DNA of 64,000 nucleotides from NCBI GenBank assembly GCA_963825135.1, contig CAWGRW010000010.1:1-64000 (forward strand), written 5' to 3'. The stretch comes from an uncultured bacterium. GTDB lineage: Bacteria; Desulfobacterota_D; UBA1144; Nemesobacterales; UBA2774. Shown here one piece after another: positions 52,888-63,479 of this stretch; the stretch's first letter is position 1; every line of letters begins with the position of its first letter. Under the pieces are notes generated by a model. That model made no database searches. It had not been told where the DNA came from and saw only the letters and a list, made by a program, of their open reading frames with translations. Made by a program: the position numbers and the translations under genes.

Positions 52888-54138
52888 TCAAGACGAGCGC
52901 CTCCCGAGAATCCTCTCTCCGGCCGAACGGGTGAGCTTCCCCGTGCGTCTCACGAGCTCGAACACGGAATACATGACCAGATGCCATGCGCTCCCCATGC
53001 CGAAGACGTGCTGGAGGAATCCGGGGAACCCGGAAACCCTGGCAAGCAGATTCTTCCCGCCGTTTTCGCCCGAATAGGAATTCCAGAGAAACCTGAGCTC
53101 TACGAGCCCGACCAGGACACCCGGGGGCCTCGTCCTCACGCCGTATTCGAAACGCGCGGCCTTCGTCACGGGGACCGAATCCAGTTTTCGGAGGACCGCA
53201 TCGGGCACGCGAGATTCCGGATACCGGTTCAGATACCTGAGCGCTTCCCCGACGGCAAGCGCCTTTCCGTGCCTCTCCGCCCCTGAGGCGACCCTCTCCC
53301 AGTCAAGCCCCTCCCCTTCCTTACGCACTATGGCGGCCGCGTCGGCCACCCACCTTATGGGCGGGACTCTATTCCACGCGACCCCGTGCGCGCATACCTG
53401 GAGGAGCTGATCGGCGGGGTCGAGCGCGAGCGCCTTTACCCCCTCTACGCTTATGCTCCGCGCCCCTTCCCAGAAAGAGTCGTCCGCGTCGGGCCGGTTG
53501 TAGCCGTGGAGGAGGTGCCAGTGGAGGTCTATGGTGAACTGCGCGGGGTTGGTGAAGTCCTGCCCGTGCCTGACTGTGAAATATTCATCGGTATAGTCCT
53601 GAACGCCCCTCTCCCCCGGCGTCCATCCGAGCCTCGAGAGGAGCTTCATATCCGTAAAGCCCTTGAGCGGGGTGACGGAAGAGCGCCATCCGAGCCCCGT
53701 GATTATATCTATCGCCTCGCGCACGCGCGAGGTCGGGACGAGCAGGTCGGCGTCCATCATCGGGCGCGTGCCCGGGTCGCTGTAATAGAGTAGCGCGAGC
53801 GCCGAGCCCTTGAGGAGTATCGCCGGCATGCCGCGGCCGTTTAACTCCTGGAGGAGTGCCGAGAGCCTGCCGTAGAGCGTCCTGTTGTTGGAGAGTGTCT
53901 TCGCGTAGACCCAGCCGAAAATGTTCATGAGCGGGTCGCCGATGCCCATGGATTTGAGATTGACGTAGAGGAGGGGGAAGAGCCTGTAGGAGCCGGGGTC
54001 GACCGCGCCCATGTCGGCCGACGACTTCCATTCAAGAAAGGCGTCCACGGCTTCATCCCCGGTCAGTATGCAGGCCTTTAGCAGCAGCTCCTGCGGGCGG
54101 GTGGGCCAGCATCCGCCGTCGTTTATCAGTCCGCTCAT
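52888..54138 (-). CDS. Nucleotidyltransferase family protein (NTP_transf_5-like)
   Basis: LLKGSAL, RPMMDADLLV (DxD), IDLHW, CAHG, RWVAD. Confidence 0.85.
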   Translation of the reverse strand: MSGLINDGGCWPTRPQELLLKACILTGDEAVDAFLEWKSSADMGAVDPGSYRLFPLLYVNLKSMGIGDPLMNIFGWVYAKTLSNNRTLYGRLSALLQELNGRGMPAILLKGSALALLYYSDPGTRPMMDADLLVPTSRVREAIDIITGLGWRSSVTPLKGFTDMKLLSRLGWTPGERGVQDYTDEYFTVRHGQDFTNPAQFTIDLHWHLLHGYNRPDADDSFWEGARSISVEGVKALALDPADQLLQVCAHGVAWNRVPPIRWVADAAAIVRKEGEGLDWERVASGAERHGKALAVGEALRYLNRYPESRVPDAVLRKLDSVPVTKAARFEYGVRTRPPGVLVGLVELRFLWNSYSGENGGKNLLARVSGFPGFLQHVFGMGSAWHLVMYSVFELVRRTGKLTRSAGERILGRRSS

Positions 54139-54166
54139 ATTATCATTTCCCCGACCGGACTATTAT

Positions 54167-54406
54167 CTATAATAGAAACGAATGTAACAAGCGAGGGATA
54201 AGGAGGAATTGTTCGTGCGGGATAGGGCTCAAATCGGATGCGCAGGCCTCTGTACAGGTTACCGCGTCCGCTGTAGCAAGGTTGAGCCCCCGGTTAAGCA
54301 TCATCACGGAAATAACGGTCGGGATGATGAACGCGCCCCAGGTCGCATTCTCCCGGAACTCGCGCCTTTCCGGGTTTATGCTTTAAAGAAATTTCTTTTC
54401 GCCCAT
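54167..54406 (-). pseudogene. Degenerate copy of the repeated precursor-like peptide
   Basis: MGEKKFL*SINPERREFRENATWGAFIIPTVISVMMLNRGLNLATADA..; in-frame TAA at 54385-54383; GGAG RBS. Confidence 0.8.
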
Positions 54407-54497
54407 TCGATTATCTCCGGCTTACCGGATATGAATCAATATAAACCGCAATACATGCGAAGAATAGCTAATACTATAATCTTCCAGGCGGCGCGGT

Positions 54498-54695
54498 TTA
54501 TGGAACAGGCATAGGAACCGCCCCATCGTTACTCTGGGCGTTCGCGGTCGTGAGGTTGAGCTTCTGGTTAAGCATCATCACGGAAATAACGGTCGGGATG
54601 ATGAATGCGCCCTTGGTCACTCTCTCCAGAAACTCGCGCCGTTCGGGATTCACGTCTTTAAGGAACCCTTTGGCGGCCTTCTCGTCGTCACTCAT
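54498..54695 (-). CDS. Precursor-like peptide copy (65 aa)
   Basis: MSDDEKAAKGFLKDVNPERREFLERVTKGAFIIPTVISVMMLNQKLNLTTANAQSNDGAVPMPVP; GGAGG RBS. Confidence 0.85.
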   Translation of the reverse strand: MSDDEKAAKGFLKDVNPERREFLERVTKGAFIIPTVISVMMLNQKLNLTTANAQSNDGAVPMPVP

Positions 54696-54815
54696 CAGTC
54701 ATCCTCCGGAAGCAGAATTTATTATAGTTTATAATATATAAACCTGCGTAAAATGCAACCAGGGACAGAAAATTTTTGTTAGTGCGAGAAAGGTACGGAC
54801 AGGGCGTCCGGCAGC

Positions 54816-55923
54816 TCAGGATTTTTTAAGGAGAGCGGATATGAATTTGTGCTTCGTTCGGTATTCGGGGTTCTCAGGGTCCCGCGCGAGGGCGAGGGCG
54901 TAGCATCGCCCGCTCTCTTCGAGCCTGCCCAGCTTGAAATAGCACGTTCCCATGGGCTCGTACGAGAACTCGCGGAATATCCTGCTGTCGTACGAGATCC
55001 TGCCGGGGTCTATACCGTCGGGATCGACCGACGCGAGACTCCCGAAGAGCGCGGCCGCCTCCCCGTATGCGCCTCCGTGCATTAGCACCATGGCCCTGAC
55101 CCAGATCATCAGGTAATTGTCCGGGAACAGTGTCTCCGCTTCTTTCAGAACCCCGGAGTAGTCCTCGTCCTTTTCGAGCAGGAGCCTGATCAGATCGTAA
55201 TACGGCTGGCAGTCCCTGGGCACGATATCCTTTCTGCCCCGGATAGTATCTATCGCCCGCCGCCACTCCCGCTCCGCCCCCTCCGTATCGCCCAGGGCCT
55301 TGAGCACGGTGCCGAGCTTGTATCTGAGAAAGGAAATATCCGGATGGTCCTCGACGTGCTTACTGCAGAAGCGGCAGGTTCCTCCTGTGCTTGCGGCCCA
55401 TCTCCCCGTCATACCCGAGGTGGTCGATCTCGAGAATGGAATTCCCTATGGCAAGCCCCTCTTCCTCCCCCACCCTCGTGACGGAAGGGAGCACGGTCTC
55501 GTGTATTATCCCCTCGAACCTTATCCTCGGGTCGTTCCGGAATATCCTGAATTCCCTGAAAGGGGTAAACCCGGTGATCGGCCGGTAATTGACCGTAAAC
55601 GCGGCGTATCCGGGCCGCGAGAGGTCGGCTTTGACGAGGGATTTATCGACCGATCTCAGCCTCTCGTCGGCGTCTATGTAGAGTATCCATTCCCCCAGGC
55701 AGCGGTCGACGGACACGTTGCGGGCGGCGGAGAAGTCGTCCCGCCACGGGAAATCGAAGAGCCTCGCGCCGTACCGGGCCGCGATCTCCTTCGTCCGGTC
55801 GGTCGATCCCGTATCGACGATGACTATCTCGTCCGCTACGTCTTTAAGCGATTCGAGACAGCCTTCGAGGAAACGCTCCTCGTTACGCACGATCATGGCG
55901 GCTGAAAGGAATATATCGTTCAA
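54816..55923 (-). CDS. GT2 glycosyltransferase with TPR C-terminus, +1 frameshift near 55362
   Basis: MIVRNEE, VDTGSTD, DFSAARN, IDADE, IHE, HLGY; TPR helices continue in the adjacent frame. Confidence 0.85.
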
Positions 55924-56092
55924 TGCCGGTTAACCCTGAAACAATGATAACAGGAAGGAATCAATAAGAAACACGATATCATCTATAGATACGGAGCAGC
56001 ACGACGGCCGCTTTCATCCGGCACATGACCGGGGCCGGATATTCCAGGCCGTACCGGCCTGCCGCCCCCGCGCCTCCGTCCGTTTCCGGCTA

Positions 56093-56254
56093 TCAGTTGT
56101 CGTTACTCTGGGCGTTGGCGGTTGTGAGGTTCAATTTCTGGTTCAGCATCATCACGGATATTACGGTCGGGATGATGAACGCACCCTTGGTAACCTTCTC
56201 CAGGAACTCGCGCCTTTCGGGGTTTACGTCTTCGAGGAATTTCTTTTGGCTCAT
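56093..56254 (-). CDS. Precursor-like peptide copy (53 aa, absent from ORF track)
   Basis: Hand translation MSQKKFLEDVNPERREFLEKVTKGAFIIPTVISVMMLNQKLNLTTANAQSNDN*; GGAG RBS. Confidence 0.85.
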   Translation of the reverse strand: MSQKKFLEDVNPERREFLEKVTKGAFIIPTVISVMMLNQKLNLTTANAQSNDN

Positions 56255-56358
56255 TCGAGTATCTCCAGTTTATTGGATTGTGCGTCAATATGCCGCGGAT
56301 CCCGTTTCATTGCGCGTCTCAGCCGCTATGACACTGCACGGAATCGCAACCGGCTCTG

Positions 56359-56520
56359 TTACCCGTCGTTGCTCTGGGCGTTGGCGGTGGTGAGGTTCAA
56401 TTTCTGGTTCAGCATCATCACGGATATTACGGTAGGGATGATGAACGCGCCCTTGGTAACCTTCTCCAGGAACTCGCGCCTTTCGGGGTTTACGTCTTCG
56501 AAGAACTTCTTCATAGCCAC
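56359..56520 (-). CDS. Precursor-like peptide copy (53 aa, GTG start, absent from ORF track)
   Basis: Hand translation MAMKKFFEDVNPERREFLEKVTKGAFIIPTVISVMMLNQKLNLTTANAQSNDG*; GGAGG 6 nt before GTG. Confidence 0.85.
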   Translation of the reverse strand: MAMKKFFEDVNPERREFLEKVTKGAFIIPTVISVMMLNQKLNLTTANAQSNDG

Positions 56521-56644
56521 GGACAGCCTCCAAACATTCGATTTATCAGAAATATATCATATCGCGGATCGACATACAAGCAATATTTGCAGAATTCCGG
56601 ATAAGTTACACACGACAACATTTCCCGGCGGCGCAGGGACTTTA

Positions 56645-58392
56645 TCAGAGGGAGCGCATGTATTCGAGGAGCTGCTGCTGGGAGCCCTCGTTGGTCCATC
56701 TGTTCTCGATCCACCGGGCCCCCTGCATGGCGCGTATGAGGTGGCTGCCGTAATTCCGGTACACGTCCCATACCGCGTCCTCTATGTCGCCCAGGCTGAC
56801 CCTGTCCCACTGCCCGTAGGCATTCCCTTCGTAGTTCGCATCTTCCTTCCCGCAGACCGGTATGACCTTACAGAAACCGGATTCGATTATCTCCCGGTGG
56901 ACCGGAATATCGGTCAGAAGCGTCGGTATGCCCAGATACATGCTTTCGCGAGGGGTGAAAGACCACCCCTCCCCGCTCGACGGGAAGACGTAACATGAAA
57001 GATTACGGTACCATTCGCCCGTCCGCTCGTCGGTCCACTCCCCCCAGGTCCATTCGACGAACGGGGAGCGTTCCATCAGGGCGACCTCGGGCGTGTACAT
57101 ACCCCGCATAAACATGGAGGAATGAACGACGAGCCTGAGCCCGGGGATTTTCCCCAGGAGATTCACGCACGCCTGATAGAGTTTGAATAAATTTTTTCTC
57201 TTGTAAGGCACGCCCAGGAACCCGATCCTGAAAACGTCGCCCCGGGGCTTGATAGAGGACCTCCTGTCGTACCTCGTGAACCCCTGCTGTATAGCGGCGA
57301 CCGGGATTCTGACGCCCGAGGATTCGAACACCCCCTTCATGTATTCATGAGGGACGATACAGCGGGCGTAATGCTCGTTAATCGGCTTTATCCAGTGACG
57401 GGGAATCTCCGACGTCTCGAACGTAGTATAAGCTACGTTGATATTTCCCTTCGAAAGCCTGTCGGTAAAAAACGGCGCCATACCGGCAACCAGGACCTTT
57501 TTGCTCGAGAGATGCTTCGTATCTTTCACGACCGTGCCGATAACGCTCGAACGGTCGTACACCGTGGTCAGGCCGTCGAAGGGCTTTTCCTTGTATATCC
57601 GGAGCACGTATATATCGTCGGGAATATTTATTCCGGCGATTTTCGAATCTATCCCGCGGCGGATACCGGCGGCAGCCGCCGCGCTCACCTTCTTCCTTGA
57701 GCCGCCCGCGTATTCGGGCGATCCCTTCTTGTGCTCCCACCTCCAGGAAGCCTCGTGGTGGTGCCTGCCGTAGTTCCCGAAATGGCAAGCTACCGCCCCC
57801 GTTACGGGACATATGCGGTCGGGGTTCGGGAGGAGCACCACGTCCCTGAGCTTTTGCCTGCAGTCGTGATACACCGTGGTTACGAGGCCGGGGCCGGTGG
57901 ATTCGAGGACGTCGTTCTCGGTCAGTATTTCGCGGCGCGACTCCCGTGCCATCTTTCTCAGTATATGGAGCAGGAACGGGTGGCCGGGCTCGCTCCCGAA
58001 CATGTAGTTCGCCACGCGGAGTCGGTCCCTGTGTCCGAGCCTCAGGGCCGTCTCCACGGTCAGCGTCGATTCCTCGCCGAACACGCAGCGGAATTCGCAA
58101 AGCCCGTCGAGCGGGTTAAGGCACTCGACGTCCATGTCCATATAAAACCCGCCCTCCCCGTAAACGACTACGATGCGGAATATATCGGTCCTCTGAATGA
58201 CCGACGCGCGGTCGTAAACCGGGAGGAACTCGGGGAAGAACCTTGTTCAACGGCGTCCCTGCACGCCTCATCGTCGTAGAATTTGTATTCCCAGGCGGGA
58301 TGGAGGGCGATGAGGTTCTCCCTGTAACGGCGGTACTTCGCCGGAACGTCCTCGTTCTTATACGTCTGGTGGATTATCCTGGGGATGGCCAT
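56645..58392 (-). CDS. Bifunctional glycosyltransferase: GT32-like DxD domain fused to GT4-like domain; frameshift near 58240
   Basis: IPRIIHQTYK, DIFRIVVVYGEGGFYMDMD, PGHPFL, TGPG; C-terminal RKN, VFPSSGEGWSFTPRE. Confidence 0.8.
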
Positions 58393-58418
58393 GTTCGTCA
58401 CGAATCTCCGCCGCAGCT

Positions 58419-59153
58419 CTATCCTTCTATTCCGTCCAGCAGGCGCGACGCCTCTTCCCCGGTGTACCTGCCGTCGAGTATGCCTTTAATTATCGAGGTC
58501 GATTCCGCCGAAAGCTCGCTCGACGCGCTGAATATCTTCTCCCAGTGCTCTCTCGTGCACAGGTTGTTACCGTGATAAACGTATATATAGAGCTTCGGCA
58601 TCATCACGGGGAAAATGAGGCTCCGCTTGAAGAGCTCCCTTATGAGGTACGTATCCTCGTGCCGGAAGACTTCCTCGTACCTGAGATCGCCGCCGAGTAA
58701 CGATTTCCTGCACAGGAGCGACCCCTCCCACGGCCTCCTGTTGGATAGATAGGCCTTACCCGTACGCTCGTCATACATGAGCCAGTGAAATAGAAGGCAC
58801 GCGGGCAGCCCGCTCGCCTTGATCACGTCCATCTGGAACGAGAGCCTGTCGCGGTGAGACCAGTCGTCGTCGTCCCATTGGCAGAAATACTCCCCGCGGC
58901 ACTCCGCCAGGGAACGGTTTCTCAGTCTGCCGAGATTAAATCCTTCGGAAGAAGGCAGCTCGACTAAAATGAGATTATGATCTTCCAGGGCTCTCACGTA
59001 TTCGGCCGTCTCTCCGTCATCGCTCTCGTAGAGTATTACGAGCTCCTTCCGAGGATACGTCTGGTCCCTGAAGGACTGAACGGCCCTTTGGAGGAGCTTC
59101 TTCCTGCCGTGCGTAACGCAGAGGCACGATATGAGCGGCATGTCGTCATTCAT
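58419..59153 (-). CDS. GT2 glycosyltransferase
   Basis: ISCLCVT, QTYPRKELVI, LGRLRN, QWDDDD, HED, YVYHG. Confidence 0.85.
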   Translation of the reverse strand: MNDDMPLISCLCVTHGRKKLLQRAVQSFRDQTYPRKELVILYESDDGETAEYVRALEDHNLILVELPSSEGFNLGRLRNRSLAECRGEYFCQWDDDDWSHRDRLSFQMDVIKASGLPACLLFHWLMYDERTGKAYLSNRRPWEGSLLCRKSLLGGDLRYEEVFRHEDTYLIRELFKRSLIFPVMMPKLYIYVYHGNNLCTREHWEKIFSASSELSAESTSIIKGILDGRYTGEEASRLLDGIEG

Positions 59154-60267
59154 GTCGGGTCCCGGTTTTTTTCAGCAGCGCGCCCAAGAATTTGCGTTTG
59201 GTTTCATACTCATGGTTGCCGGGGCGGAGCTCGGCCGCGAGCGAATAGTATTTGAGGCTCTCCCCGTATCTTCCGAGCTTGAAAAGACAGGCCGCGAGAG
59301 GCTCATAGGAAAGCTCGCCGAATATGGCGGTGTTGTACGAGAGGGGGCCTTCGACCAGGGTCTCGGGGTCAACGGAAACGAGCGATTCGAGGAGCGGGAC
59401 GGCTTCTTCGAAACGGCGGCTCCGCGCGAGCGTCACCGCCCTGGTCCATATCAGGAGATAGTTGTCGGGGAAGAGGCGGAGGGCCTCGTCGAGGAGCGCG
59501 GAGGAGTCCCCGCCCTTGTCGTTGAGAAGACAGATCATTTCATAAAACGCGTGACTGTCCTCGTGCGTCACGGTCTCTTTCCGGCGCGATATTTCCATGG
59601 CTTCCGTCCACGTCTTTTCGGCCGCGTCCGGGTCTCCGAGGCCCTTCAGGGCCACGCCCAGCTGCCACCTGAGATACATCCTCTGCGGCTCGTTCTCTAT
59701 CTGTTTTATGAGCAGGGGGAGGTTCCTCCCGTGCTTTTGCAGGAGGTCCCCGTCGTAGCCGGTGTGGTCTATGGCGAGGGGGCAGTCGCCGATGCCCATC
59801 CCGTTCTCTTCCATGAAGACCTCGATCGAGGGGAATATGGTCTCGTGAATGGTGTTGCAGAACCGTATGCGGGGGTCGTTCCTGAAAATCCGGTATTCCT
59901 TGTACGCGGTATAGCCACCTATGGGGTGGAACCTGACGGTATAGACGGCAATCTTCGTGTCGGAAAGTATCCGCGTTACCTCTTCCCTGCTCACGGGTCT
60001 GAGCCTCTCGTCAGCGTCTATGTAGAGTATCCATTCGCCGCGGCAGTGATCGAGGGACTCGTTGCGTGCGGCTGAGAAATCGTCCCGCCAGGGGAAATCG
60101 AAGACCCTCGCGCCGTACCGGGAAGCGATCTCCTTCGTCCGGTCGGTCGATCCCGTATCGACGATGACTATCTCGTCGACCACGTCCCTGATGGATTCGA
60201 GACAGCCTTCGAGGAATCGCTCTTCGTTGCGCACGATCATGGAGGCCGAAAAGATTATATCGCTCAA
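59146..60267 (-). CDS. GT2 glycosyltransferase with TPR C-terminus
   Basis: TTG start with GAGG RBS (matches paralog start); MIVRNEE, IDADE, IHE, HTGY; TPR helices. Confidence 0.88.
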   Translation of the reverse strand: MSDIIFSASMIVRNEERFLEGCLESIRDVVDEIVIVDTGSTDRTKEIASRYGARVFDFPWRDDFSAARNESLDHCRGEWILYIDADERLRPVSREEVTRILSDTKIAVYTVRFHPIGGYTAYKEYRIFRNDPRIRFCNTIHETIFPSIEVFMEENGMGIGDCPLAIDHTGYDGDLLQKHGRNLPLLIKQIENEPQRMYLRWQLGVALKGLGDPDAAEKTWTEAMEISRRKETVTHEDSHAFYEMICLLNDKGGDSSALLDEALRLFPDNYLLIWTRAVTLARSRRFEEAVPLLESLVSVDPETLVEGPLSYNTAIFGELSYEPLAACLFKLGRYGESLKYYSLAAELRPGNHEYETKRKFLGALLKKTGTRHE

Positions 60268-60403
60268 TTCCTCATCACCAGGATTAAATAATAACCGGAG
60301 AGGACGCGTACCAAAACGGCGGGGAACAGGAAATATAAAACTCGGGGGACGGGACGCGTGCCCGTGAAAAGCGGATTGCCGGGTCACAAAAGGCGTCCGG
60401 GCT

Positions 60404-61021
60404 TTAACCGCAGTAAGGCTGATCTTCCGGCAAAAGGAGCTTACGAATGAAGAACTTCGAATCCGGGGCAAGCGTGCTGCCCAGAGGAATTCCGTTTGCG
60501 AAGTAAAATCCGGTCTCGCCGGAAGGCAGGAGGTCGTACGTATGACCGGCCTCGTACCGGACCTTCTCTATCGATAACAGCACCGCTCCGTCCAATGTGT
60601 CGCCCGGCAAGAGATCGCCTGCTTCCCCGGCGTCCGTGGTAGGATGCCCCGGAGACACGAACAATTCTCTGCCGTCATTCAAAACCAGACGACAAAGGGT
60701 ATGGTCTCCCGGAACCGACGCCTTCGACACGAGCTCTATCGGTCTTACGACCTTGTTTCCGTTCGAGTCGAGGGTGAATACCGGCATCCCCGGCCTTAAA
60801 TCGACGATGGAAACGTCCCCGTCCGGGGTCGAGATCAGGGTCGCCGCAGACAGGCACGGCGCTGTCCCGTTGCTCTGGGCGTTTGCCGTCGTGAGATGGA
60901 GCTTCTGATTGAGCATCATCACGGAAATGACCGTCGGTATAACGAACGCGCCCTTCGTAAGCTTCTCGAGGAACTCGCGCCTCTCGGGATTAACGCCGTC
61001 CAGAAACCTTTTGTCACTCAT
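60404..61021 (-). CDS. Precursor-like peptide fused to a Hint autoprocessing domain
   Basis: Residues 1-55 are the repeated peptide; Cys56 starts CLSAATLISTPDG (block A), VSPGHP (block B-like), TYDL..FYFANG (blocks F/G) with no His-Asn. Confidence 0.85.
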   Translation of the reverse strand: MSDKRFLDGVNPERREFLEKLTKGAFVIPTVISVMMLNQKLHLTTANAQSNGTAPCLSAATLISTPDGDVSIVDLRPGMPVFTLDSNGNKVVRPIELVSKASVPGDHTLCRLVLNDGRELFVSPGHPTTDAGEAGDLLPGDTLDGAVLLSIEKVRYEAGHTYDLLPSGETGFYFANGIPLGSTLAPDSKFFIRKLLLPEDQPYCG

Positions 61022-61059
61022 GATACGCCCCCTTTATATTACAATACAGACTGCGACGA

Positions 61060-61896
61060 TTATATCACAGACATTTTTTCCTGTAAACCCGAGACGGCCC
61101 CATCGAGATCGCCTATATAAAGCAGATAGCAATGAGCGCTGTCTATCAGCCCGCATAGCCCGCCGATTTTCAAATGGTCGTTTGTCTCCGAAAGGAAGCT
61201 CATGGGCATAATTTTCTCGACCATGCGGTATTTGGGGCACTCCTCTATACGCGTCTCTCCGCCGTGATTCCGTACGAGATAGAAGACGGCGCTGACTTCC
61301 CCCTCGTCGATCTTCCAGGGGCGTCCCGCGTCGAGGGGCGTAAACGAGTACATCTTCTGTTTATTGTAGGTGATGTTGTACGGGAGCGATTCGAAGGGCG
61401 GCTTCATTTTCGGCAAAAGACCCGTGCTCTCCTGTTTGATGTTGAACCGCCTCGGGAACGGTATGGCCTTGCAGTCCCGGACAAGCGCGAGCTCGTCCCC
61501 GACGACCCGAAATCCCGCCAGCACCAGACTGACCATGAGCGTGGTCTTCCCGGCTCCCTTGTCCCCGACGACAAGGAACCTCTTCCCGTTCCATTCCGCG
61601 CACCCGGCGTGAATGCGTATCCTGTCCGTGATCCCGGAAAGCACCTCCTTGTGCATGAGCCACTGGAGGTTGAAGATCGTGGCGCTGAGGTCGCCCGAGG
61701 AGTGGCGGACCTCGCCGCTTCTCAGGACTTCATAAACGCCGTCCCTGACCCTCAATTCATAGAGGGCCTCGTTCGTGACGGGATAGTCCTGCTCCGCGTC
61801 GTGCACTATGAAATCGAGAAGGCGCGCCGATTCTTCGTCTTCGGTGCGTATGGTGAATGCGGTGTCGAGCAGTGTATGCCTGCGTTCGTGAATTAT
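61060..61896 (-). CDS. HPr-kinase-related P-loop kinase
   Basis: IHAG, GDKGAGKTT, VGDE, PFPR; frame is open 30 codons upstream of GTG 61806 up to the PqqD stop; start uncertain. Confidence 0.8.
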   Translation of the reverse strand: MIHERRHTLLDTAFTIRTEDEESARLLDFIVHDAEQDYPVTNEALYELRVRDGVYEVLRSGEVRHSSGDLSATIFNLQWLMHKEVLSGITDRIRIHAGCAEWNGKRFLVVGDKGAGKTTLMVSLVLAGFRVVGDELALVRDCKAIPFPRRFNIKQESTGLLPKMKPPFESLPYNITYNKQKMYSFTPLDAGRPWKIDEGEVSAVFYLVRNHGGETRIEECPKYRMVEKIMPMSFLSETNDHLKIGGLCGLIDSAHCYLLYIGDLDGAVSGLQEKMSVI

Positions 61897-62150
61897 TTGA
61901 CCAGTCCTTCCTGAATGAGCGTATTGAGGCAGTCGGCGACTTCTTTCTCCGGGTCCTCCGGGAGCTGATACGCCTCCCTCACGACCGCCGTGATATCGGC
62001 CAGAGAGTTTGTGCCCGTGCAGGCCTCGAGCACGAGCACCGCGGTCTTGTTGAGGTAGTGGACCTTATCCTTCTCGCTCTGGTAGATGACGTAGCCGTCC
62101 TCGACCTCGTTTATGTCTATGCCATCGGCTATTTTGGGGTATTCGCTCAT
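61893..62150 (-). CDS. Stand-alone PqqD-family RiPP recognition element
   Basis: 85 aa; VEDGYVIY..KVHYLNKTAVLVLEAC.G..DCLNTLIQEGLV pattern; AGGA RBS. Confidence 0.88.
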   Translation of the reverse strand: MSEYPKIADGIDINEVEDGYVIYQSEKDKVHYLNKTAVLVLEACTGTNSLADITAVVREAYQLPEDPEKEVADCLNTLIQEGLVK

Positions 62151-62287
62151 CGAAGTACGTCCTGCCTCGTTTCGGTATTTGTAAAAACAGAGTATTTATT
62201 ATCCCGAATTGCGGCGGGACTTTCAAGACCGCGGAGGAATCACATGCGAACCTGCATCGGGAATTTTCCGAAATCGGTCATCAGAAA

Positions 62288-62330
62288 CAAAAAAAACCCC
62301 GGAACGCCTCTATGGGCGCTCCGGGGCTTT
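62288..62330 (-). terminator. Rho-independent terminator after the small lipopeptide gene
   Basis: ccccggaacgcc/gggcgctccgggg stem with an A-run (U-tail on minus strand). Confidence 0.65.
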
Positions 62331-62366
62331 CTTTACATTTAATAATATCTTCCGGTCTATTAAAGC

Positions 62367-62525
62367 CTATGACTGGGTCGAGTCGCCCGAGCCCGAACCT
62401 GTGGGCTGGTTTGACGTCGTGTCCTTATCCTTTCCGCCGCAGGCGAGTACGTTAGACGTAGTCAATACTATTCCGCCGAGCGCTATCCCCAATGTAATTG
62501 CCAGTGCAAATAATACCTTTTTCAT
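62367..62525 (-). CDS. Small secreted or lipidated Ser/Thr/Gly-rich peptide (52 aa, absent from ORF track)
   Basis: MKKVLFALAITLGIALGGIVLTTSNVLACGGKDKDTTSNQPTGSGSGDSTQS*; GGGAGG RBS; VLAC lipobox; own terminator. Confidence 0.7.
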   Translation of the reverse strand: MKKVLFALAITLGIALGGIVLTTSNVLACGGKDKDTTSNQPTGSGSGDSTQS

Positions 62526-62642: not shown

Positions 62643-63479
62643 TCAAGGCTTCCTCGTCCACGCGCTTATCCAGGTGTTCGACATGCCCACTCTGTCGGCC
62701 GCCCCGACGTCCGCGGCTTCGGCGGCGAGTCTCTCCTTGAGCGTGTCGATGCCGACTTCGTCCGCCGTAGCGATGCCGAGCTTCTCCATCATCGGCAAGA
62801 GGCTCTTTATAGTGCTGACGAACCAGTCAATACCCGGGGAGTTCGCCCCGCCCACGAACGCGTCCATGTGCATCGCGGGCTCGGGAAGTCCGGCCTTCAT
62901 ATAGACCGGGAGGAGCTTGAACCCCATCTGCATCTCCGTCCCCGACTTTTCCATAGCGGCGTACAGCCAGTCCCAGAGCTTCATGAACAGCGGAAAAGGC
63001 GGTATCGCCACGGGGCGTATCGTAAAGTCCACCTCCTGGAAAACGACCACTCCGCCCGGCTTCACGTGCCGGACAAGCGTCGTCAGGACCTTGACCGGCT
63101 CGGGCACGTACATCAGCACCGCCCGCCCGGCAAGCGCGTCGAACACCCCCTCGGGCTCGGCCGCGCCGATATCGCCGACGACGAACCTGATATTGGCGAA
63201 GCCCCTTTCCAGGGCCCGCTTTTTCGCCGTCTCCTGAATCTCCGGGTTCCTCTCTATGCTGACGACCTCACCCTTGGGCCCCACCATCTCGGCCAGCAGC
63301 AGCGCCACGTCCCCGGCCCCCGTGCCTAGCTCCAGCACCCTCATGCCCTTCCCGATGCCCGCGAGCTCGAATATCCTCTCCGTCGTCCGGATAATTATCC
63401 GCGACTGTTCCTCGAGCCGCTTCTTCTCGTTCTCCGTGTCGCTGAGCGCGTATTCTTTCTTAATGTCGCTATCCGCCAT
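62643..63479 (-). CDS. Class I SAM-dependent methyltransferase
   Basis: VLELGTGAGDV, FVVGD, FDALAGR, VKPGG. Confidence 0.9.
   Translation of the reverse strand: MADSDIKKEYALSDTENEKKRLEEQSRIIIRTTERIFELAGIGKGMRVLELGTGAGDVALLLAEMVGPKGEVVSIERNPEIQETAKKRALERGFANIRFVVGDIGAAEPEGVFDALAGRAVLMYVPEPVKVLTTLVRHVKPGGVVVFQEVDFTIRPVAIPPFPLFMKLWDWLYAAMEKSGTEMQMGFKLLPVYMKAGLPEPAMHMDAFVGGANSPGIDWFVSTIKSLLPMMEKLGIATADEVGIDTLKERLAAEAADVGAADRVGMSNTWISAWTRKP

Follow-up and report, generated by a model that had tools for sequence, protein, structure and literature searches.

A conserved gene cluster of Candidatus Dadabacteria and Thermodesulfobacteriota resembling the linear polyphosphorylated peptide systems, with built-in glycosyltransferases and Hint-fused precursors

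An assembly of an uncultured bacterium (GCA_963825135.1; GTDB Desulfobacterota_D) carries, at positions 52888-62150 of a 64,000-nucleotide stretch of contig CAWGRW010000010.1 (positions 1 to 64,000, hereafter the window), a cluster of genes built around a family of short peptides that look like precursors of RiPPs (peptides made by ribosomal synthesis and then post-translationally modified). Besides the peptides, the cluster encodes a PqqD-type RiPP recognition element (RRE), an HprK-like kinase, a set of glycosyltransferases and a nucleotidyltransferase (NTase) of the NTP_transf_5 family. The system is real and conserved among related uncultured bacteria of soil and sediment and, to judge from its sequences, probably functional. 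Its closest known counterpart is the linear polyphosphorylated peptide (LPP) system of Bacillota, of which the locus is a variant and not a member. The reading that we favour, with moderate confidence, is an LPP-like pathway guided by the leader and the RRE, in which the peptide would be phosphorylated, then phosphoglycosylated, and the glycan extended on the peptide.

All twelve elements listed in the original prediction, which had been made from the letters alone, were recovered by family scans and translations, all on the minus strand (Table 1), so that the proposed co-oriented gene set and its order stand. The same prediction had noted the lack of a lasso cyclase, a B2 peptidase, a radical SAM enzyme, a YcaO protein and a C39 exporter, and none of these was found in Pfam and NCBIfam scans of the cluster and its flanks. 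Three features had not been seen at that time: two glycosyltransferase genes with frameshifts, the likeness of the leader to a signal of the twin-arginine translocation (Tat) pathway, and two additional peptide-Hint genes elsewhere in the assembly.

In the window, the peptide family comprises three short members (53, 53 and 65 residues), one fusion to a Hint domain and one decayed copy, which is 69% identical over residues 1-49 and has one in-frame TAA; the two further peptide-Hint copies lie away from the cluster on contigs C9 and C17. All copies share one architecture: a short N-terminus with Lys-Lys is followed by N-P-E-R-R-E-F-L-E-K, then by a hydrophobic stretch containing the invariant F26-x-x-P29-x-V31, and then by N-Q-K-L-N-L-T-T-A-N-A, one variable residue, the invariant Ser50 and the nearly invariant Asn51. 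R14, R15, F17, L18 and A46-N47-A48 are likewise invariant across the leader copies, the leader being about 48 residues long, and Ser50 is the sole invariant hydroxyl residue downstream of the A-x-A motif. The tails that follow are copy-specific, Pro/Gly-rich and 1-20 residues long; in the Hint fusions they are reduced to 1-5 residues before the Hint Cys. The short peptides contain no Cys.

When a profile of 29 short peptides was compared with 1.84 billion representatives, 18 clusters were matched at E<=1e-3. The distant members retain P-x-R-R-x-F-L-K-K, A-[F/Y]-x-x-P-x-V-x-S-V-S-M and A-x-A, with Tyr in place of F26 in three of them. Two of the 18, P0132 (667 residues) and P0134 (404 residues), are long and internally repetitive proteins and probably unrelated. 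Leader matches of the peptide at 56359-56520 and of P0133 to TIGR04117 (E 0.08-0.15), a family of Cys-Xaa-Xaa-Xaa repeat targets of radical SAM enzymes, are sub-threshold and were judged insignificant; they may hint at a leader type common to other peptide systems of related bacteria.

The leader has evolved under strong purifying selection. Over 38 leader codons in 28 copies from 7 sources, the mean nonsynonymous divergence (dN) is 0.052 and the mean synonymous divergence (dS) is 1.17, with a dN/dS of 0.045 and 71 of the 378 copy pairs saturated at synonymous sites; the leader stays nearly invariant while kinase identity drops to 51%. So low a ratio suggests that the peptides are old, translated and strongly constrained genes. 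This bears directly on the notion that the short peptides are non-functional duplicates of the 5′ end of the Hint gene, the enzymes serving ordinary envelope glycan synthesis. Such a notion could draw on the decayed copy and the two frameshifted glycosyltransferase genes of the window, as well as on the peptide-Hint genes found away from the cluster. It is contradicted, however, by the low dN/dS with synonymous sites near saturation between copies, by three minimal loci (L024, L030, L031), with frames that appear intact, in which a single short peptide occurs and the Hint gene is missing, by the strict co-occurrence of peptide and kinase described below, by the absence of the frameshifts from near-identical environmental contigs, and by the RRE, which has no role in ordinary glycan synthesis. 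We consider it very improbable that the peptides are gene debris, an explanation largely refuted by selection, the environmental contigs and the Hint-free loci.

A pattern search over one genome per species returned 24 loci with a leader-bearing gene, from metagenome-assembled genomes (MAGs) of Candidatus Dadabacteria, Thermodesulfobacteriota or ‘delta proteobacterium’, apart from two that bear the label Spirochaetia and two that bear ‘uncultured bacterium’. In 19 of the 24 the peptide has one or more cluster enzymes beside it, and in 11 the complete set; the other five loci are orphans, all of them in MAGs that also carry a cluster locus. The order in complete sets is PqqD, kinase, 0-2 peptide-Hint genes, GT2-TPR (a family 2 glycosyltransferase with tetratricopeptide repeats), GT2, GT32-GT4, 1-4 short peptides and NTP_transf_5, with an optional insert of a second GT2-TPR and its own peptide before the last gene. 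PqqD (by tblastn), the kinase, GT2 and NTP_transf_5 are each present in 11 of 11 complete loci, and across these 11 the cluster has no conserved companion gene for a transporter, a protease, a cyclase, a radical SAM enzyme or a YcaO protein.

Among 120 species genomes of the phylum, close homologs of the kinase and the peptide were each found in 20, both together in 19 and neither in 99, and in the two discordant genomes the contigs end inside the cluster. The enzymes also adjoin the peptide in 8 of 10 metagenome loci with distant peptides (37-63% identity to P0133). Such strict co-occurrence and synteny support the earlier proposal that the gene set acts on the peptides. A second kinase/PqqD/NTP_transf_5 triad, at 21-25% identity and without glycosyltransferases, was found in the same phylum (L035:1827-4505, G009:C1). 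Just upstream of it, an 80-residue open reading frame (ORF) bears R-R-R-L-L, Y-S-I-P-A-V-L (with Tyr at the place of F26), S-Q-A and a basic Gly/Arg/Ser tail. Downstream of this triad lie ORFs whose translations, judged by eye, resemble the polysaccharide export proteins Wza and Wzc.

The original prediction held that the locus fits no recognised class; this no longer applies, as LPP, published in 2026, has the same RRE/HprK-like kinase/NTP-transferase core and the same precursor logic. In the account by Popov et al. (Nat Commun, May 2026; PMC13381572), LPP clusters (LppA/K/B/S/D/N) are described as restricted to Bacillota, and their core of an RRE, an HprK-like kinase and an NTP transferase is often found in glycosyltransferase-rich capsule loci. 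At the N-terminus the precursors are conserved, reading YxxPxVLxHQxIxFETxxS, and their C-termini vary. The RRE, which binds YxxP, offers the cleavage site to the peptidase, the leader is removed, and S3 of the core AQSNWK receives up to four phosphates from the kinase. LppN showed no activity in the heterologous host, and the end product was not identified (PMC13381572).

The two systems share a discrete RRE of the PqqD type, an HprK-like kinase and a PF14907-type NTP transferase, together with one to several precursors of constant N-terminus and varying C-terminus and an association with glycosyltransferase or polysaccharide genes. Their precursors are partly alike in an aromatic-x-x-P-x-V docking motif, with Phe here where LPP has [Y/W]xxPx[V/L], and in a Ser that comes soon after the leader in A-x-S-N, as does the phosphorylated S3 of AQSNWK in LppA. 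No SpI-like (SipW-type) peptidase is present in the cluster or flanks, the best match to TIGR02228 in the genome (16.7 bits against a cut-off of 51.85) being on another contig, and no MsbA-like ABC exporter was found in the cluster or the flanks scanned, nor is one conserved across the 11 loci. Because these two LPP-defining features are absent, the locus is treated as a variant and not a member. In addition, a dedicated set of glycosyltransferases is built in (four genes in this locus), the leader is much longer than the 27 residues given for LPP and has a signal-like RRxFL...AxA layout, some precursors are fused to Hint domains, up to seven precursor copies occur per locus, and the hosts are Candidatus Dadabacteria and Thermodesulfobacteriota, not Bacillota.

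The lasso peptides paeninodin and pseudomycoidin offer a second comparison. According to the reports on them (PMC8498205, PMC6993621), they too combine an RRE with an HprK-like kinase for a precursor Ser and a PF14907-type NTP transferase, and in pseudomycoidin PsmN is required for the attachment of one or two hexoses to phosphoserine (PMC6993621; reviewed in PMC8498205). In the cluster studied here, in contrast, there is no macrolactam synthetase and no B2 peptidase, and hence no lasso; the Ser is not C-terminal, and dedicated glycosyltransferases are present.

Several lines of evidence bear on the three enzymes of the shared core. A profile of 14 homologs of the PqqD protein matches PqqD (5sxy, 1.9e-4), TfuB1 (6.8e-4) and LppB (9x8z_B, 1.4e-3), and the link between RRE and leader that had been predicted gains support from the invariant F26-x-x-P29-x-V31, which is a docking motif of the RRE type. 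A modelled complex of PqqD and peptide reached an interface score (ipSAE) of 0.36 against 0.02 for the best control (0.36, 0.39 and 0.23 in individual runs), with partner confidence (predicted local distance difference test, pLDDT) no lower than 49 and agreement between runs on 56% of contacts or more. The mark applied to such models is attained by 116 of 157 solved complexes and by 2 of 215 mismatches, and only 18 of the 157 scored 0.60 or less. The model lends weak support to docking of PqqD on the leader, and its pass may reflect memory because RRE-leader complexes have already been solved.

The kinase translation contains a Walker-A-like GDKGAGKT and is also matched by HPr kinase models at weak E-values; in a sequence search of the PDB, its best E-value was 0.2, and NTP_transf_5 had no match. 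The latter has a G...DxD catalytic motif in translation, with G111, D129 and D131 invariant in 11 homologs, one of them at 22% identity. Its AlphaFold2 model (pLDDT 70) has an NTase fold of the Pol-beta type, with MenT1 (2.9e-4), LnuA and ANT(2'')-Ia as Foldseek neighbours.

The cluster contains up to five glycosyltransferase domains, and DxD is found in the GT2-TPR, GT2 and GT32 translations, ExxxxxxxE in that of GT4. The GT2-TPR enzymes, which the original prediction compared with SunS-type enzymes, have PDB matches to GmaR (2.9e-30), 7msk (6e-16) and SunS (about 1e-15); GmaR is described as a glycosyltransferase with a TPR region (PMC3150276). For the first of them, GT2-TPR a, alignments with homologs set in only at residues 46-70, which places the true start probably near 60270. 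As in glycocin enzymes and GmaR, a GT-A (GT2) catalytic domain is followed by TPR-like repeats. Unlike glycocin systems, the locus lacks a Cys acceptor in the peptides, a double-glycine leader and a C39 exporter, and the two GT2-TPR enzymes score only 67 and 62 bits with TIGR04195, below its cut-off of 350. We know of no glycocin cluster with an RRE, a kinase or an NTase, all three of which are present here.

The peptide that comes after the second enzyme, GT2-TPR b, belongs to a distinct orthologous subtype with a longer, acidic and Lys-containing N-terminus, found also at L008:13534-13722, L011:16760-16948, L023:7613-7801 and L027:1792-1980. Its tail is of the Thr/Pro kind and Asp/Thr-rich in these four loci, and Pro-rich in the window copy. 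The second GT2-TPR is always accompanied by this subtype, which suggests a separate peptide partner for each GT2-TPR.

The leader itself has the look of a Tat signal. It shows RRxFL, about 14 hydrophobic residues (K23-N38), a Lys in the following segment corresponding to a c-region, and the invariant A-x-A, after which the residue varies; the genome encodes TatC. Distant members read S-R-R-E-F-L-K-K (RRxFLKK) and reach 14.4-14.8 bits against a cut-off of 16.7 with TIGR01409 in two of nine cases and E 0.0056-0.08 with TIGR02811 in five of nine. The resemblance is incomplete in that no model reaches its cut-off and the mature part would be only 3-20 residues. Since the cluster has no peptidase or exporter and the leader combines RRxFL, a hydrophobic stretch and A-x-A, export by Tat (or Sec) with cleavage by a housekeeping signal peptidase is the most economical route, and we regard it as reasonable but unproven. 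No Tat-type RiPP leader was found in the open-access papers and bioRxiv preprints searched.

The same absence of exporter and peptidase could be read in another way, namely that the peptide is an uncleaved, N-terminally anchored component of the envelope, held by the RR and the hydrophobic stretch as a signal anchor, that bears on its short C-terminal tail a surface or priming phosphoglycan related to capsule or extracellular polysaccharide. Conservation is far stronger over the N-terminal 51 residues than in the short, variable, spacer-like Pro/Gly-rich tail, and the enzyme triad recurs with polysaccharide loci, both in LPP (PMC13381572) and at L035 beside the Wza/Wzc-like ORFs. Nevertheless, some 14 hydrophobic residues would make a short membrane helix, the invariant A-x-A and its variable +1 residue resemble a signal-peptidase site, the conserved core is without lipid-carrier, flippase or polymerase genes, and in LPP the leader is reported to be removed (PMC13381572). 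An anchored component is rated as unlikely.

The Hint-fused precursor is the most unusual part of the system. Leader residues 1-51 of the 205-residue fusion align with the short peptides, and the Hint domain begins at Cys56. Its Hint_2 score is below the cut-off, and the family profile matches the intein 6dsl_B at 1.2e-8. The AlphaFold2 model of the fusion has a mean pLDDT of 57, with the leader below 50; of its 34 PDB matches at E<=1e-3 in Foldseek, all among the matches listed are inteins, bacterial intein-like (BIL) domains or Hedgehog autoprocessing domains. C56 and H126-P127 are invariant in 45 homologs. The fold, the N-terminal Cys and the block-B His are those of splicing inteins, but the C-terminal His-Asn and the following nucleophile are absent, and the aligned end position reads G-S-T-L. 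With no terminal His-Asn, only cleavage of the N-terminal junction, via a thioester, would be expected. In these respects the domain resembles Hedgehog and BIL domains, from which it differs in that the N-terminal part to be released would be a RiPP-type precursor of 50-60 residues. The orphan peptide-Hint genes (L012, L014, L016, L017, L020) have no conserved neighbours, only the gene itself being matched. No Hint domain joined to a RiPP precursor was found among the open-access papers and bioRxiv preprints listed in the literature searches.

From gene content, synteny, co-occurrence, motifs, selection and folds, we infer the chemistry, the modified residue, the export and the product of the LPP-like pathway as follows. 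PqqD would bind F-x-x-P-x-V of the leader and present the peptide to the enzymes, whereupon the HprK-like kinase would phosphorylate Ser50 within A48-x-S50-N51. NTP_transf_5 would be needed to link a sugar to the phosphate, either by nucleotidylating the phosphate or by making the donor. GT2-TPR, GT2 and GT32-GT4 would assemble a short glycan or lengthen it. The TPR domains probably help to hold the peptide by its leader, and in keeping with this the second GT2-TPR always travels with a peptide subtype of distinct N-terminus. Tat (or Sec) export and a cut by the housekeeping signal peptidase would yield a phosphoglycopeptide of 3-20 residues, and the Hint-fused copies would self-cleave at Cys56 through a thioester. 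The original prediction had the pathway act on Ser/Thr/Asn-containing peptides. Here, the choice of Ser finds support in Ser50 lying in the same A-x-S-N context as the experimentally phosphorylated Ser of LppA (PMC13381572); the overall interpretation, with its phospho-, nucleotidyl- and glyco-modifications, is partly supported.

A number of observations weigh against this pathway. The kinase (59.6 bits against a curated cut-off of 200 for TIGR04352) and the PqqD protein (29.0 bits against 35 for TIGR04353) both fall below the equivalog cut-offs of HPr-rel-A, so that the locus is not assigned to those systems. The distance from Pro to Ser is 21 residues here and 15 in LppA. The role assigned to NTP_transf_5 has its functional basis in pseudomycoidin, LppN having been inactive in the published host. 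As to export, the window peptides match no Tat model at E<=10, the conservation of the leader is unusually strong for signal peptides, and the hydrophobic stretch contains the RRE motif too, so that its signal-peptide look could be a by-product. One locus (L040:7686-13834; L042 is the same sequence from another assembly) has PqqD, peptide, GT2-TPR, GT2, GT32-GT4 and an extra GT32, with no kinase or NTP_transf_5 within 8 kb. Finally, the frame of GT32-GT4 is disrupted in the window by a +2-nucleotide insertion near 58245-58248, and that of the second GT2-TPR by a +1-nucleotide insertion near 55364.

The frameshifts are seen in the window only, when it is compared with three to four homologous loci. 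The extra T near 55364 is unique to the window against four homologs, the second GT2-TPR being one continuous frame in L008, and intact GT32-GT4 homologs are single open frames of 586-622 codons. PF04488 (GT32) is recognisable only in such intact homologs (35.5 and 40.9 bits in the two scanned, of 576 and 581 residues from the first Met). In environmental contigs 90-99% alike, from sediment, soil and groundwater metagenomes, the +1 insertion is absent in both covering runs (X1, X5) and the +2 insertion in all three (X2, X3, X5). The Peptidase_M64 gene upstream is likewise split into two overlapping ORFs (L038:3069-4377; G000:C10:65168-66476). Contig C17, 3.2 kb long (L005, G000:C17:1-2792), nearly duplicates the stretch of C9 that holds an orphan peptide-Hint gene (L004, G000:C9:2159725-2162877) and has a short garbled segment within the Hint domain, being probably an uncollapsed, error-bearing assembly variant. 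The split gene and the garbled duplicate suggest that the assembly carries indel errors; alternatively, the frameshifts may be a strain-private defect. The contigs of runs X1 and X2 also differ from the window by a +1/-1 indel pair 5 nucleotides apart at 55861-55866, where the second GT2-TPR starts, and by the loss of 1 nucleotide at 56065, in the spacer before that gene.

The L040/L042 locus suggests that glycosylation may not depend on phosphorylation, which is one basis for a further reading: the glycosyltransferases may modify the peptide directly, through O- or N-linkage to Ser, Thr or Asn as in glycocins or in the glycosylation of flagellin, while the kinase and NTP_transf_5 make a separate phosphate or nucleotide mark. 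The nearest relatives of GT2-TPR, GmaR and SunS, glycosylate side chains of proteins or peptides directly, and N-x-T occurs in many tails. It is missing, however, from many copies, Ser50 being the only invariant hydroxyl residue after A-x-A, and kinase and NTP_transf_5 accompany the glycosyltransferases in every complete genome locus. L040/L042 itself carries, on the opposite strand, a gene of the Stealth family (PF11380, 121.5 bits). Stealth proteins are sugar-1-phosphate transferases. If that activity holds here, this single case would be a one-step substitute for the kinase and the NTase and would point again to a phosphate-linked sugar. Such replacement as a wider pattern was rejected: Stealth genes occur in 4 of the 120 genomes of the phylum, none beside a PqqD or peptide gene, and since these other loci are unrelated the L040/L042 case stands alone. 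Direct glycosylation independent of the kinase is given a low probability.

The LPP-like pathway can be extended into a more ambitious scheme, which we put forward as a doubtful possibility. The leader would be a genuine Tat signal whose hydrophobic core doubles as the docking site of the RRE, and PqqD would act as a Tat proofreading chaperone that holds the signal until the phosphate-linked glycan has been built on Ser50. The tasks for which LPP has its own peptidase and exporter would fall to the general Tat machinery and the housekeeping signal peptidase. After export, the Hint domain of the fused precursors would turn the C-terminus of the phosphoglycopeptide into a thioester and pass the peptide to an envelope or external nucleophile. 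If true, bacteria would have in this transfer a counterpart to Hedgehog lipidation or to BIL-mediated conjugation.

No account of this cluster type in Dadabacteria was found in the open-access papers and preprints. Seven conserved genes hold what is presumed to be the whole pathway: the RRE, the kinase, three glycosyltransferase genes that hold four catalytic domains between them, the NTP transferase and the peptide. This set provides a defined means to find what the phosphate serves for, the LPP study having left its product unidentified and having found the NTP transferase inactive away from its native, glycosyltransferase-rich surroundings. If the leader works as a Tat signal, the system would exemplify a RiPP pathway that dispenses with a protease and an exporter of its own, and the Hint fusion would be, within the same literature, the first self-cleaving domain on such a precursor.

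Table 1. Features of the cluster region, in window coordinates
Feature	Positions	Strand	Evidence
NTP_transf_5 nucleotidyltransferase-fold enzyme, 416 residues	52888..54138	-	PF14907, 135.9 bits
Decayed peptide copy	54167..54406 (approximate)	-	one in-frame TAA, diverged C-terminus
Short precursor peptide, 65 residues, subtype always after GT2-TPR b	54498..54695	-	family alignment
GT2-TPR glycosyltransferase b, frameshifted in assembly	54816..55923	-	GT2 half 73 bits; TPR half in other frame
Short precursor peptide, 53 residues	56093..56254	-	family alignment; purifying selection
Short precursor peptide, 53 residues	56359..56520	-	family alignment; purifying selection
GT32-GT4 two-domain glycosyltransferase, frameshifted in assembly	56645..58401	-	Glycos_transf_1, 40.1 bits
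GT2 glycosyltransferase, 244 residues	58419..59153	-	PF00535, 47 bits
GT2-TPR glycosyltransferase a	59146..60471 (ORF as listed)	-	PF00535, 83.7 bits, and TPR repeats
Precursor peptide fused to Hint domain, 205 residues	60404..61021	-	leader alignment; Hint_2 25.8 bits; profile; Foldseek
HprK-like P-loop kinase, 248 residues	61060..61806	-	TIGR04352, E 2.6e-16, 59.6 bits
Discrete PqqD-type RRE, 85 residues	61893..62150	-	PF05402, 39.3 bits
Terminator-like hairpin (62334-62289), then promoter-like site (62226-62198)	62198..62334	-	consensus scan

The hairpin and promoter-like site at the end of Table 1 probably mark the upstream limit of the transcription unit. The promoter-like evidence for this boundary is weak, because seven such sites were counted in the region and 5.1 +/- 2.4 are expected by chance. 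A methyltransferase gene at 62643-63479 was rejected as a member of the cluster, being matched in only 4 of the 11 complete loci and separated by the terminator-like hairpin. An ORF of 52 residues in 62289-62525 has a lipoprotein-like signal, with a hydrophobic stretch ending in L-A-C; the hairpin that follows it, a 20-bp stem with a T run, parts the methyltransferase gene from the cluster. Farther upstream, some 10 kb from the cluster, there is an integrase-core (rve) gene (L038:10273-10965; G000:C10:72372-73064).

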